Assembly: GCA_964016885.1 (NCBI GenBank)
Contig: OZ024762.1
Location: 19,778,001-19,842,000 of the forward strand
Reading direction: 5' to 3'
Length of the DNA stretch: 64,000 bases
DNA from: Eledone cirrhosa
Taxonomy: Eukaryota
In this document: piece by piece, positions 2,351 to 48,933 of the stretch
How the letters are laid out: each line of letters starts with the position of its first letter
Position numbering within the stretch: position 1 is the stretch's first letter
The notes under the pieces: generated by a model
What the model was told of the DNA's origin: nothing
Database searches by the model: none
Seen by the model: only the letters and a program-made list of their open reading frames with translations
Position numbers and translations under genes: made by a program

Positions 2351-2665
2351 TATACGATATTAAATAAATGGAAACTATATTTATAAAACCATATTTATTT
2401 CATTATACATATTTCAGGGATACCAAATTAAAATATGGTATGCCTTCATCAGACAAAATACAATATATAAACAGTTTTATAAATAATTTTGACGTACCCT
2501 ATTAGATGCAACCATTATTTTTGGAAGCTGTCTGGATAGACACTATAAATATAGTTTCCATTTATTTAATATCGTATATCTACTCCAAAAACTTGTCGAG
2601 TGCTTTATATCAGTTATAAAATATTTACTTGTTGTATCCCAACAATTTTAAATAGAACTTTTACA
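2351..2665. mobile_element. PLE-like pLTR derivative, family A, with inverted arms 2351-2384/2544-2578 and tail 2579-2665
   Basis: About 35-bp inverted arms, internal minus-strand hammerhead, (TA)n on both sides; near-identical to 21787-21963. Confidence 0.75.
2396..2460 (-). ncRNA. Type I hammerhead ribozyme (family A)
   Basis: Reverse complement reads TATTTTGT-CTGATGA-AGGCATACCA..TGGTATCCCT-GAAA-TATGTA-TA|ATGAAATA; helices I-III all pair. Confidence 0.8.
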
Positions 2666-3071
2666 TATATATATATATATATATATATATATATACACAA
2701 GAAGGTGCTGAAAAGTTCCTGGCTTGATCACTGCTACAGGGGCTTGCTTGGAGGCCCAACCTTCTGAGTTCTTTTTACAGGGCTTTGAAAATCTGAAGGC
2801 AAAACTGCTGCAAAAATTAGTATACACAGCAAAGCCCCTAATTTTACATATCAAAGTTAGCTTGGTGCAAGTAATTGGAATTGAAAAGATACACATACAG
2901 GTATTAAACTCAAAAATTCTAAGCATCCTATAATTAAAAAGCCCATCTGAGGCCACAAATAAATTTCTATGTCCGACACTGGTGAGGGCCTAGGGCAATT
3001 GCCCCCTTTGCTCGCCATTAAATCCGGCTCTGGGAACCAGTGGTATATAGACTCTGTCAATTTAGCACCTT

Positions 3072-3287
3072 TTAACCGTTTAGCATTTACATTACTTTAT
3101 ATTTACTATTGTATTTTCATGGTAAAGTCTTTATTTCACATAATATCGAATCTATGAGATTTTGATATTATATATTTTGAGAACAATACCTTAACATAGG
3201 TATGAGAGGCTAGTTACAGCTGGTTTGAACAGAAAGAACTGAGATAATTCTGGCCAGATATGGCCAGTTTAAATGTTAAAGGGTTAA
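3072..3287. mobile_element. piggyBac-like MITE
   Basis: TTAA at both ends; termini CCGTTTAGCATT...AATGTTAAAGGG; further copies at 18478, 18681, 26563 and 30732. Confidence 0.8.
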
Positions 3288-3585
3288 ATATAATTATTAT
3301 CTTATTAATAAGTAATATAGTATATAAAGTAATATGTTATGTCAATACTAATCTATATTTCTTTTTCTTCTATTTACAGGTCAGTACCATTATTTCTGTT
3401 CTGGTAGGTTCTATTATTTTCTCTGTTGTATGTTGAAGATTTTAAAAACAAAATGTTTTCTTTTCATACACTTTTACTATTTGTATTCCAAACCACGCAA
3501 AACCACCCTGAATTTATAATACAAACAACACTGCCCATTTTAAAAATGTTTATTTTTGTCTCAAAGCCTTCCATTATAATTTTAA

Positions 3586-3777
3586 GGGCGGAGGATTGGC
3601 AGTATCGGTAGAGGGTTGGACGCCATGCTTTGACGCATAGAGTTACGGCCCTTGCCATTCTGAGTTCAAATCGCGCCGAGGTTAACTTTGCCTTTCATCC
3701 TTTCGGGGTCGATAAAATAAAGTACCAGTAATACACTGGGTAATTGCTGGCCTTGTGCCAAATGTAGAAACAATTAT
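3586..3777 (+). mobile_element. tRNA-derived SINE family S1 (Nin/Deu-domain-like core)
   Basis: A-box-like TGGCAGTATCGG, B-box GAGTTCAAAT, core GCCTTTCATCCTTTCGGGGTCGATAAAATAAAGTACCAG. Confidence 0.85.
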
Positions 3778-4074
3778 AATTTTATGTATTAGAATTGTTT
3801 TCGACACGCTGATGCTTGTATGAGTATATTATCATAAATGTGTAAGCACGTACACACTTAGAAAAATACACACTCACAGACATACAATCATAGAAACACA
3901 CACATGCAGTGTAGCAAATGGAACACCAGCCACTGTTTTGCTATAGTTTTTTCACCAAACCCTTCCTTCCTTTTGCACACACATACATTTACACACACAC
4001 ACACACACAAACAAACACACACACATATTGTGTGACAGACGAACGGACAGACAAAAGTCACTCAAGTTTATATA

Positions 4075-4200
4075 TAGAACCTTTATCAACATTTTTTATA
4101 CCAAACCACCCGATGCGCATTTTATTATAGAATTGACTTCTACAGGACTAGACCTGTTTCATTCGTAAGAAATCATCTTCTGCACTAGTTACAGGAACTC
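4075..4200 (-). mobile_element. Degenerate family-F pLTR fragment with a mutated hammerhead core
   Basis: Reverse complement AAGATGA-TTTCTTACGAAT-GAAA-CAGGTCTAGTCCTG-TA matches family F (28945, 30195), but CTGATGA is altered. Confidence 0.6.
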
Positions 4201-4750
4201 AATGACGATGATGATGATTGTGATCCCAGAGTAGAAATCTAAGTAAAAGTAATTTCCCAGTAACATCTGTATTTACCCAAATCTAAGTAAAAATAATTTC
4301 CCAGTAACATCTGTATTTACCCTTTTTAGTAACAGCCCCACCCTGAAACCACTCTGGATTTATGATATAAACAACACTACTCATTTTTAAAATGTTTATA
4401 TTAGGAGGTGCTGTAAAGTCCCTGTCATTTATATATGATGATAATACTGCTCAATTTAAAATGTTTATCCTTATATTAAAACCTTCTACCATAGTTTTAT
4501 TACAGAAATTGTTATTAAGTAATGTTAGATCAGCTTATTAATGAAAAACTTATTTAATTAAATACTTATATGTTTGGATATTTTCCAAATTAGGTTGAAC
4601 ACATAGGCAGTGTAATTAATTATTTTGTAGAAAATATCTCCAAATGTTTATAGTATCTTTACTTACTGTAAAGATTGTTGTGAACATTTGCTGAGTAAAA
4701 AGTTAAAATTCTAATGTGATGCTGTCTTCAACCGTTCAATAGATTGACAG

Positions 4751-4793
4751 AGGTATGCAGCACTGATGAAGGGTAATGACCCTGAAACCTGTT
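4751..4793 (+). ncRNA. Candidate type III hammerhead with minimal helix I
   Basis: AGGTA|TGCAGCA-CTGATGA-AGGGT AATG ACCCT-GAAA-CCT; perfect helix II, 4-bp helix III, very short helix I. Confidence 0.5.
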
Positions 4794-4987
4794 GATTGTT
4801 CCTCAATGTCAGTGTTGAACAAACGGATGACAATTTGTCATTGGCACGGCACAGCTTTAATTGTGCTGTTTGTTTACAAATGAACCAAATATTATTATTA
4901 TCAATGTTCGATATAACAGATATGTATGTATATATATATATATATGTATATATATATATATATACACACACACATATGTACACAATC

Positions 4988-46551: not shown

Positions 46552-46653
46552 AAGTATATATGTATATAACATCATCATTATCACCGTTTTACGTCCATTT
46601 TTCCACGCTGGCATGGGTTATCTATCTCTCTCTCTCTATATATATATATATAT

Positions 46654-46747
46654 GAAACGAAGAGAGCGTGGTAAGGAACCAAGTCCAGAAATAGCCGGCG
46701 AAATGGCTTGAGCTCTGCCGTCGGGGTCTTGAACATTTTCCTTCCTA
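46654..46747. mobile_element. Family E fold-back remnant (tail end fused to one arm)
   Basis: GTGGTAAGGAACCA (reverse complement of the tail) joined to AGTCCAGAAATAGCC..GCCGTCGGGGTC. Confidence 0.7.
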
Positions 46748-46804
46748 TATATATATATATATATATATATATATATATATATATATATATATATATATAT
46801 TATC

Positions 46805-47075
46805 GTCATCATCATCATCATCACCGTTTTACATCAATCTTTTCACGCTACCATGGGTGAGATGGGTTGTCCAGTTGTGGGCAATGCCAGGTCAAGTGAC
46901 CATGTCTTGCTCATACAGGACTGATTTTGGCTCAGTTTCTACAGCTGGATGCCCTTCCTAACACCAACCTCATTTACAGTGAGCACTGGGTGCTTTTTTA
47001 CCATAGCACCTACACGACCACTTTACAGTGTAGACTGGGTGATTTTTGTTGTGACACCTACATGACCACTTTACC
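46805..47075 (-). mobile_element. S2-related SINE 3' part (related copies at 51950-52170, 42440-42750, 32325-32525)
   Basis: TTTCTACAGCTGGATGCCCTTCCTAACACC motif and (CAT)n. Confidence 0.75.
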
Positions 47076-47134
47076 ATGGAAGGGCCATGGGGGCATATTG
47101 TCTATATGCTTCAGCTTCGGCTTATATATATATT

Positions 47135-47376
47135 AGCTAAGGCAGGTAGAATTCCTGAGGTCCATGAAGGAGTTCTCTTCAGCGGTCTCTGCCCTTCATC
47201 ATTGCTGCTATGTTCCGCGTCTCCCAGAGACTAGTGTCTTTCCTTACAGCATCAACATATGTCATCGTTGATCTCTCTCTTCCAGTGTGTCCATGTAGGA
47301 ACTCCCACAGGACCACTGAGTGCAGTGTCAACTCAAAATGTTCGTGAGCATGTCCAGCTAGCCTCAGTCTCCTCAC
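47135..47376 (-). mobile_element. Diverged 3' fragment of the same RTE family
   Basis: [24 protein letters not shown] matches the C-terminus of the 44666 ORF. Confidence 0.9.
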
Positions 47377-47656
47377 TTCCCCACGAATAGGGATCATATA
47401 TCTGCCCTCTCTTTACTCTCGCCCACATCACCAGTTAAGGGGTCATACATCTGGTCCTTCTTTACCCTGGCCCACCTCTCCAGGGATAGGGCTCATACAC
47501 CTGCCCCTCTTTACCCTGGCTTGCCTCCCCAGGGAAGGGGTCATATATCTAGCCCCTCTTTACCCTGGCCCACCTCCCCAGCGAACTCTGGCTTACCTGG
47601 CAAAACTATGTTTTGAACATAGTTTTGATTATTCTGTAATTTATATATATATACAT

Positions 47657-47998
47657 GGAGGCACATGGCTTAGTGGTTAGAGCATTGGCCTTGCAATCGA
47701 AAGGTTGTGAGTTCAATTCTCAGACCGGGTGATGTGTTGTTTCCTTGAGCAAGAGACTTTATTTCACATTGCTCCAGTCTACTCAGCTGTAGAAATGAGA
47801 TGATAGGGACTGGGGTCCCTATCATTCCACTGCAAAGTGGTCGTGGAGGTGCCACTGCAAAAAAGCACCCAGCACTCACTGTAAATGAGGTTGGTGTTAG
47901 GAAGGGCATCCAGCTGTAGAAATCAAGCCAGAATCAGTTCCCGTCCCACCCTTGCAAGCAGGGAAAAGTGGACGTAAAATGATGATGATGATGATGAT
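47657..47998 (+). mobile_element. S2 SINE, full length
   Basis: Near-identical to the 32539 copy. Confidence 0.9.
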
Positions 47999-48785
47999 AT
48001 ATATATATACATAAATATGCACAAACAAAAATATTGTGCAAATGTCGATATTTTCTTCTTCTGTTGATGTTTTTTTAATGTATTGGAGGGCGAGGTGGGG
48101 AGTGTTTGTTTTTGTTATTTTTTGCTTTTGTATTGTTTGTTATTTATCCATTTGTTCTCTTGCTAACTGAGTGTATATATATATATGTATGTGTGTGTGT
48201 GTGTGTATTATATAGATATGGATATATATGTATATATGTATGTATATATGTACATATGTATATCAAAGTATCGACACTTATCACTTAATAGTGGTGTGTG
48301 TGTTGTATGTATTATGTAGATGTGTGCATTTCTATATACAGATGGAAACATGTGTTTCTGTCACACACACACACGTACATACATACATACTACGTACACA
48401 CACACATATATACATGCATACATACGTACATGCACACCTACCAACATACATGCACACATGCATGCATACATCATACATGCATACACACATACATATATAC
48501 ACCCATACATACACATACATACATGTATATGTATGTATGTGTATGTAGATATATATATGCACACAAATATATTACTTTTCTATGTGTTAAAGTTACCCTA
48601 CCACCACATATATATGTATATATAGACACATTTATATATGTTTAATTGACTCATATAGACTTATAGACTTTATCTGCAAAATACTATATACACGCACACA
48701 CACACACATATATATATATAAACACACTCACACACACATATATATATATATAAACACACTCACACACACACACATATATATATAT

Positions 48786-48933
48786 ATAATATAAGATCAA
48801 AAGATGGTTAAAGGAGTTCCTTTAACCATCTTTTGATCTTATATTATGTATACTCCAGTCCTACAAACTGTAGAGTGCTTCTTATCCGATATCTGCATTG
48901 CTTTATTGTACTACAATAAAACTCACCTCCTAC
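48786..48933. mobile_element. Family D fold-back (arms 48786-48847) plus tail
   Basis: Perfect 30-bp arms matching 21415-21444. Confidence 0.85.

Follow-up and report, generated by a model that had tools for sequence, protein, structure and literature searches.

A duplicated, covarying hairpin module that apparently marks both 3' ends of Hydra-type Penelope-like retrotransposons in Eledone cirrhosa

Two described systems come closest to the retroelements considered here; they and the other articles identified below by PMC accession are each cited for part of their content. In the Poseidon element of Anolis, reverse transcription starts at two internal sites bounding a tail, and RNA up to +172 is needed even though one of the starts lies at +111–118 (Frangieh et al., 2024, PMC11167929). 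Poseidon thereby resembles the elements analyzed here in having two 3' ends that bound an optional tail downstream of a hammerhead, AT-rich targets and required RNA 3' of the start (PMC11167929). The Hydra clade of Penelope-like elements shares with them a single frame joining a reverse transcriptase (RT) to a C-terminal GIY-YIG endonuclease, a hammerhead and (TA)n targets (Craig et al., 2021, PMC8557442). How Penelope-like elements choose internal starts, and how their inverted arms and one-sided tails originate, are open questions, the sole in vitro study having found starts and no conserved signal; the insertion pattern is already known, and the signal behind it is the new part. The subject of this analysis is a short hairpin motif in a 64,000-nt stretch of Eledone cirrhosa DNA (assembly GCA_964016885.1, contig OZ024762.1, forward-strand positions 19,778,001 to 19,842,000; hereafter the window), where an initial annotation had recorded it at 11 sites as an RCTC-stem-2-nt bulge-GAGY structure. 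It is a real and apparently undescribed cis module, present in duplicate and marking both 3' ends of Hydra-type Penelope-like elements. Throughout, the host genome is the 3.0-Gb assembly G000, L-numbers denote loci outside the window, and family letters other than K are labels coined in this analysis.

All 11 sequences lie where the initial annotation had placed them, and the proposed link to the hammerhead and arm boundary holds: the motifs sit just beyond the end of the inverted arm and share the sense of the minimal hammerhead core (CTGANGA..GAAA) wherever the window copy retains that core. The outline of the motif also stood but was incomplete, omitting the RCT that is conserved 3' of GAGY as well as the TATA-like sequence 4–8 nt before RCTC, so that the consensus becomes (TATA)-N3-5-RCTC-Y..R-TH-GAGY-RCT. 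The pattern is matched 12 times in the window, against 0–5 times across 20 block shuffles. In 600 kb sampled elsewhere in the host genome, the pattern with a 2-nt 3' bulge (consensus TH) is matched 85 times, compared with 25–35 times in five shuffles and with 38, 35, 20, and 22 times for 3' bulges of 0, 1, 3, and 4 nt; the 69 matches with a 2-nt bulge on the 5' side are mostly the same sites read from the opposite strand and are unusable as a control. A covariance model trained on 10 sequences, none from the window and three from the same genome, ranked all 11 sites within the top 12 of its 13 window matches, including the hairpins at 28846 (first upper pair broken) and 11153 (one upper-stem mismatch) and the site at 32000, where GTTC replaces RCTC; an additional high-scoring match at 26508–26531 held no motif on inspection. 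In one motif search a tandem array supplied 31 of 98 matches, and the counts of that search were excluded from the statistics. Tandem units of ~26 bp made of the hairpin itself occur at L137:2837-3400 (end approximate), 72 nt past a hammerhead core.

The ends of genomic copies fall at two such hairpins. Among 147 alignment ends of six families, mapped in 864 kb of sampled host DNA that includes the window, 124 lie 0–14 nt before a hairpin, 60 of them before the first (hairpin 1) and 64 before the second (hairpin 2), with 22 elsewhere and one run-through; the two bins together amount to 10–15% of each reference. Tail-less and inverted copies end just ahead of hairpin 1, and tailed copies just ahead of hairpin 2. 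In family A, where the tailed side was preselected by the query, an adjacent inverted copy is found at 22 of 30 tailed loci and the hairpin in none of the 22 inverted copies. Of seven long copies of the L173 lineage, five end at (TA)n just ahead of the hairpin and two run through, and 20 endpoints from other organisms comprise 13 at -4 to 0, two at +6, three cross-family matches and two elsewhere. Exact one-lap copying of a circular RNA was rejected as an account of these copies, the 5' ends of 21 frame-entering copies being scattered with no pile-up at the hairpin.

The second hairpin is a regular part of the element leader. Protein alignment retrieved 78 loci from metagenomes, along with 17 contigs deposited as parts of prokaryotic assemblies, in which the order is hammerhead, hairpin 1, hairpin 2, start codon. 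In 45 non-redundant leaders from other organisms, two anchors are present in 27, three in two, one in 10 and none in six, whereas frame-interior controls have one anchor in 2 of 43. The two hairpins are spaced 55–83 nt apart (37 leaders, not de-duplicated), window tails extend 64–138 nt from hairpin 1, and hairpin 2 ends 15–52 nt upstream of the start codon. The motif had originally been assigned to the end of the arm and the start of the tail; this position is borne out, but it is half of the picture, since the motif is one of a pair, the other member of which stands where the tail finishes. The forecast of the pair model, a second hairpin beyond the tail end, agrees with all six families traced (A, B, C, D, E, and K, with a reduced form in A), in which hairpin 2 lies 3–12 nt past that end. 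Three of 79 matches in family B (L304 read) and one of 10 in family C continue directly into hairpin 2. In family D, whose run-through copies escaped a first search and were recovered by a looser one, about 40 of 71 matches carry hairpin 2 by eye, as do all six that were read. Hairpin 2 is present in 4/4 cases in family K, with a degenerate 3' flank, and intact in 11 of 12 loci read for family E, the remaining locus having one changed letter; in family A it is reduced to GCAC-loop-GTGC without a bulge (42 matches).

The covariation claimed for the upper stem is evident in 60 distinct hairpins from other organisms, for which the arms were set by sequence only, without selection on the upper stem, after excluding 10 anchors lacking a 5' arm and one duplicate. 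Counting from the 2-nt 3' bulge, upper pairs 1–3 are Watson-Crick in 58/60, 38/59, and 27/37 cases, the first being C-G in 37 and U-A in 21; none of 10,000 partner shuffles matched the observed pairing, and in other registers the first pair is Watson-Crick in only 1–17 of 60. A plain multiple alignment misaligns the variable loop, and position-anchored counts and a covariance model were used instead; the covariance-fitted alignment (92 distinct rows), which is biased toward the modeled structure, has 109 cells changed on both sides against 37.6 when shuffled. Hairpin 1 shows a strong covariation signal; among the hairpin 2 sequences, mostly C-G with a short upper stem, the signal is weak. Covariation of the lower stem stands only in part: the variants ACTC/GAGT, which predominates in the host genome, and GCTC/GAGC do exist, but the inner CUC/GAG pairs are almost invariant and most of the covariation resides in the upper stem. 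The 60 lower stems are GCTC/GAGC in 55 cases, GCAC/GTGC in two and ACTC/GAGC in three, two of which look like nearest-arm misassignments. The bulge reads TT in 42, TC in 11, and TA in seven, and ACT directly follows the lower stem in 59. Upstream, TAT/ATA trimers peak at -8 to -6 (21, 33, and 27 of 60), and TATA or ATAT occurs within 10 nt in 36/60, against 13.5 in shuffles (maximum 26), with 8/60 having it further upstream and 3/60 downstream. Identity of the motif with hammerhead stem III, often ACTC-n-GAGT in the Hydra clade, was rejected: the motif lies outside the ribozyme, and its GAGC and GUG variants yield no cleavage triplet.

Each window site that bears the motif is the 3' end of a Penelope-like retrotransposon inserted in (TA)n and truncated on its 5' side. 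Five of the six families traced from the window (A, B, C, D, and K) run into a frame related to Hydra-type RT/GIY-YIG, with 30–48% protein identity per aligned segment to the frame of L173. The initial annotation had considered the families unrelated, and the DNA around the motif is unalignable; yet the likeness of the encoded proteins of five out of six families to one RT-endonuclease implies that the motif was inherited within one clade and, judged from sequence, the families are diverged relatives. L173 contains an intact 719-codon frame with RT and C-terminal GIY-YIG domains, ending in CTLC..E..N..CPH (CxxC and CxH motifs). Its assignment to the Hydra clade is suggested by a by-eye likeness to the published Hydra proteins Hydra-1_Obim and Hydra-1_Ajap, together with an identity of only 24–31%, over short stretches, to Neptune-type frames. 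A hammerhead in the pseudo-long terminal repeat (pLTR) and insertion into (TA)n are Hydra-clade features seen in these elements, and the host genome holds 706 occurrences of a short RT motif characteristic of the clade, against 0 for a reversed control. The L239 unit measures 2427 nt and one host lineage exceeds 3.3 kb from start codon to hammerhead, the Hydra clade being generally <3 kb. The L173 protein has no Pfam family match, and viral contigs yielded no relative. Family E is a ~2.4-kb unit with hammerheads at both ends, no RT/GIY-YIG frame and 85 sites matching its run-through pattern; at window 33462-33931 and in L382–L387 it contains direct repeats of 500 bp in its interior as well as both hairpins. 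Animal-type retroelements of this kind also occur in 17 contigs assigned to bacterial assemblies (L269–L285), probably through host contamination.

The original proposal of a covarying structure that acts in cis, linked both to the hammerhead and to the point where pLTR and tail meet in Penelope-like elements, is supported. The motif is one of two TATA-plus-bulged-hairpin modules in the Hydra-type leader, each of which likely binds the RT-endonuclease on the sense RNA and so sets one internal start of reverse transcription a few nucleotides 5' of it. In this dual-hairpin model, the endonuclease would nick (TA)n, the freed 3' end of the target would anneal to UAUA upstream of a hairpin, and the hairpin would anchor the element protein on the sense RNA. 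RT would copy away from the hairpin, and the hairpin used would therefore be left uncopied. A start at hairpin 1 would yield a tail-less (and inverted) copy, a start at hairpin 2 a tailed copy retaining hairpin 1, and use of both hairpins on the two sides of one break an inverted arm with a one-sided tail. Were this true, mobility would be confined to tailed copies and to tandem or circular transcripts that extend into a further leader downstream. More tentatively, Penelope-like elements might start reverse transcription from a modular RNA "landing pad", made up of a UAUA complementary to the target and, 3' of it, a bulged hairpin. The pad would stay uncopied, and two pads would load two protein subunits, priming the DNA on either side of a single break. 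If so, a single rule would account for the tail and the inverted arm and would explain why tandem or circular templates are needed, and transplanting the 25-nt pad to any RNA could set the start of a telomerase-like RT.

Several observations weigh against the dual-hairpin model. Microhomology to TA blurs the end positions, and the shuffle controls leave the relatedness between families in place. The upper stem of hairpin 2 is frequently limited to one or two pairs, and when hairpin 2 is taken by itself its first pair, C-G in 28/31, shows no covariation. The bulge is absent from hairpin 2 of family A and is 1 nt long in L048, no anchor was found in 6/45 leaders and a single one in 10/45, and the leaders of one host lineage carry three units, of which the one where the tail ends is degenerate. 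Concerning the strand, upper-pair G-U outnumbers A-C by 14 to 4, but slid registers are likewise rich in G-U; at 9/11 window sites folding of the antisense strand has equal or greater stability, and the sense lower stem reaches a probability of at least 0.7 at only 5/11, the hairpin being predicted to be only marginally stable. Lastly, Poseidon belongs to another clade, and no homology between start site and target is reported in the cited parts of its description (PMC11167929); hairpin-adjacent ends do match (TA)n through the TATA-like stretch, unlike Poseidon start sites. In the three-unit host lineage, the leaders of L166, L154, and L150 read hairpin 1, then a degenerate GCTC..GAAGC where the tail ends, then GCAC..GAGCACT ahead of the start codon.

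The same two end positions would arise if the hairpin directed a cut in the adjacent 5' UAUA, made by a host RNase, by the protein of the element or by self-cleavage, with the new RNA 3' end then serving as the start of ordinary target-primed reverse transcription. In the anole, the ends of RNA-seq reads from the element do coincide with RT start sites; the anole protein, however, starts internally on longer templates in vitro, with unprocessed RNA as the main substrate (PMC11167929). Among the Rfam matches inspected, no ribozyme family covers a hairpin site, and processing of this kind is considered unlikely. The GIY-YIG domain could instead recognize the hairpin in a sense-strand DNA intermediate and cut a few nucleotides 5', resolving the insertion. 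Such a role has a precedent in SsnA, a GIY-YIG nuclease that binds a single-stranded DNA hairpin by sequence, tolerates loop changes and depends for cutting on bases upstream of the palindrome (PMC11893778), a substrate that the invariant lower stem and free loop resemble; moreover, Craig et al. attribute the tail to endonuclease-mediated resolution (PMC8557442), and neither the G-U/A-C counts nor the folding energies discriminate between the strands. Complementary DNA begun further 3' and then trimmed would be required, however, and only 1/147 matches passed hairpin 2, continuing into the frame; the antisense strand is weak under DNA parameters (-1.6 to -6.1 kcal/mol, the sense strand having been folded as RNA only), and internal starts have been directly shown for Poseidon (PMC11167929). 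Resolution at a DNA hairpin is held to be improbable.

There is, lastly, very little likelihood that pairing is incidental, with TATA and the near-palindromic GAGYRCT acting as a promoter or endonuclease target in double-stranded DNA, or with hairpin 2 regulating translation. GAGY-RCTY comes close to a palindrome and is scored on the antisense strand too, hairpin 2 is close to the start codon, and TATA boxes in the pLTR have been proposed earlier (PMC3846280), but compensatory changes in the upper stem at a single fixed register, the retention of both hairpins by the non-coding family E and the mapping of copy ends to both hairpins all speak against it. The coordinates of the features concerned are collected in Table 1.

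Table 1. Hairpins, hammerhead cores and element copies located in the window (window coordinates; hairpin 2 and frames were read in the L-numbered loci).
Feature	Position	Strand	Remarks
Hammerhead core in inverted tail-less family D copy	2412..2452	-	
Hairpin 1, family D	2582..2604	+	Tail end 2664; run-through copies have hairpin 2 and Hydra-type frame
Family B fold-back arm with 3' half of hammerhead (GAAAC at 8673)	8596..8717	.	
Hairpin 1, family B	8721..8747	+	Tail end ~8795; hairpin 2 and frame in L304, L390
Hairpin 1, one upper-stem mismatch	11153..11179	+	Family without frame assignment
Family D copy ending ahead of hairpin 1	21865..21970	+	
Hairpin 1, subfamily of A	22123..22145	-	
Hammerhead core, family K	24990..25020	+	
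Hairpin 1, family K (GCTC/GAGC)	25082..25117	+	Long tail, end 25202; L408-L411 have hairpin 2 and a Hydra-type frame
Hairpin 1, family B, first upper pair broken	28846..28872	+	Tail end ~28920
Inverted tail-less family A copy, ending ahead of hairpin 1	28945..29010	-	
Hammerhead core, family A	29027..29049	+	
Hairpin 1, family A	29093..29114	+	Tail end 29156; reduced hairpin 2 (GCAC/GTGC) and frame in L286-L300
Hairpin 1, family A	30235..30256	-	Tail end 30193; inverted arm 30329-30389
Weak hairpin 1 variant (GTTC/GAGC)	31997..32021	-	Family without frame assignment
Hammerhead core, non-coding family E	33681..33722	+	
Hairpin 1 with long loop, non-coding family E	33794..33856	+	Tail end 33931
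Hairpin 1, family C	48852..48879	+	Arm 48781-48852; tail end 48936; hairpin 2 and frame in L319
Further family; window copy ends a few nt before its hairpin	56516..56707	+	Hairpin seen in L036
Family B fold-back, both arms ending ahead of hairpin 1, tail-less	63460..63625	.	

Other repeats share the window with these features. A tail-less copy of a Hydra-type family lies at 27950-28020 (-), and the hairpin of that family, seen in L048:5800-5950, has a 1-nt bulge. A fold-back with hammerhead cores at 49751-50341 belongs to a Neptune-type family (matches in L120, L329, and L335) and is devoid of the hairpin. A 581-codon RT frame of the long interspersed element (LINE) type, presumably RTE-like, occupies 44393-46138 (+), its 3' end recurring in inverted orientation at 47123-47374, and an RT C-terminus fragment at 7844-8281 (-) is taken to be L1/Tx1-like. 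Two copies of another repeat, at 5542-5594 and 41307-41359, each end in a 53-nt imperfect palindrome.

Beyond the host genome, the hairpin can be discerned by eye in the published consensuses of the coral Hydra-2_Amil and the sea cucumber Hydra-2_Ajap, with variants in the copepod Hydra-1_Crog, and the Hydra-1_Ajap consensus has both hairpins at its 5' end; the Hydra-1_Amil consensus ends ahead of the hairpin, and Hydra-1_Obim has at best a degenerate unit (PMC8557442). A universal Penelope-like motif was rejected, as Neptune-type leaders lack the hairpin: in 30 GIY-YIG loci, mostly Neptune-type, the covariance model found three matches, none at the element's own end. As far as tested, the hairpin is therefore clade-specific among the Hydra- and Neptune-type elements compared. 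Neptune-type elements of the host genome also have two ends, with a different motif. By eye, ACTYGTGT-nnn-ACAC-CTC directly follows their proximal end (L326:690-770 oriented, L333, L339, and L341), and a CACAC just beyond the distal end could pair with this proximal motif, closing off the tail. A link to Naiad was also discarded: the Naiad_Mmer consensus has a similar hairpin ~500 nt short of its end, which lacks the RCT flank and is probably due to chance. The words hairpin and stem-loop do not occur in the main text of Craig et al. (2021, PMC8557442). Rfam 15 has no match over any window hairpin site among the best 150 of 281 matches, nor in eight loci with leaders. The initial annotation knew of no description of the motif, and full-text literature searches gave none; Repbase or Dfam notes, subscription journals or the anole sequence file could still hold one.

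The presence of a covarying module just 3' of each end, in families ~40% identical in protein and in consensuses from three animal phyla, names the element to mutate. The module also gives a rule for drawing element boundaries and for spotting non-autonomous families, and it bears on template positioning in the closest retrotransposon relatives of telomerase.

In stringent non-LTR (non-long terminal repeat) elements such as R2 and the eel L2, the protein of the element recognizes a 3' RNA structure and thereby begins target-primed reverse transcription; this structure constitutes a single 3' unit inside the copied region. The module described here is likewise a structured cis signal, but it lies beyond the start, is left out of the copy that it would initiate and is duplicated. 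Template alignment in telomerase relies on a short primer-annealing stretch comparable to the one proposed here. Poseidon differs in that it starts inside an AC-rich stem-loop within the frame, with no target homology and no conserved or duplicated motif named in the cited parts of its description, and in that its tail measures 30–40 bp (PMC11167929); the tail of the window and Hydra-type elements is non-coding, spans ~60–140 nt and has its own conserved hairpin and TATA at each end. With SsnA and its NTS hairpin, the module has in common a GIY-YIG protein, a sequence-specific hairpin, a free loop and oriented upstream bases, although SsnA is a stand-alone bacterial nuclease acting on single-stranded DNA, without RNA binding or a reverse transcriptase (PMC11893778). 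The telomere-priming stretches of Athena and Coprina, lastly, share the principle of a short target-complementary stretch near the hammerhead that serves as a primer-annealing site (PMC8557442); here, by contrast, that stretch is (UA)n directed at internal microsatellites, an endonuclease is involved, and a hairpin accompanies the stretch on its downstream side.

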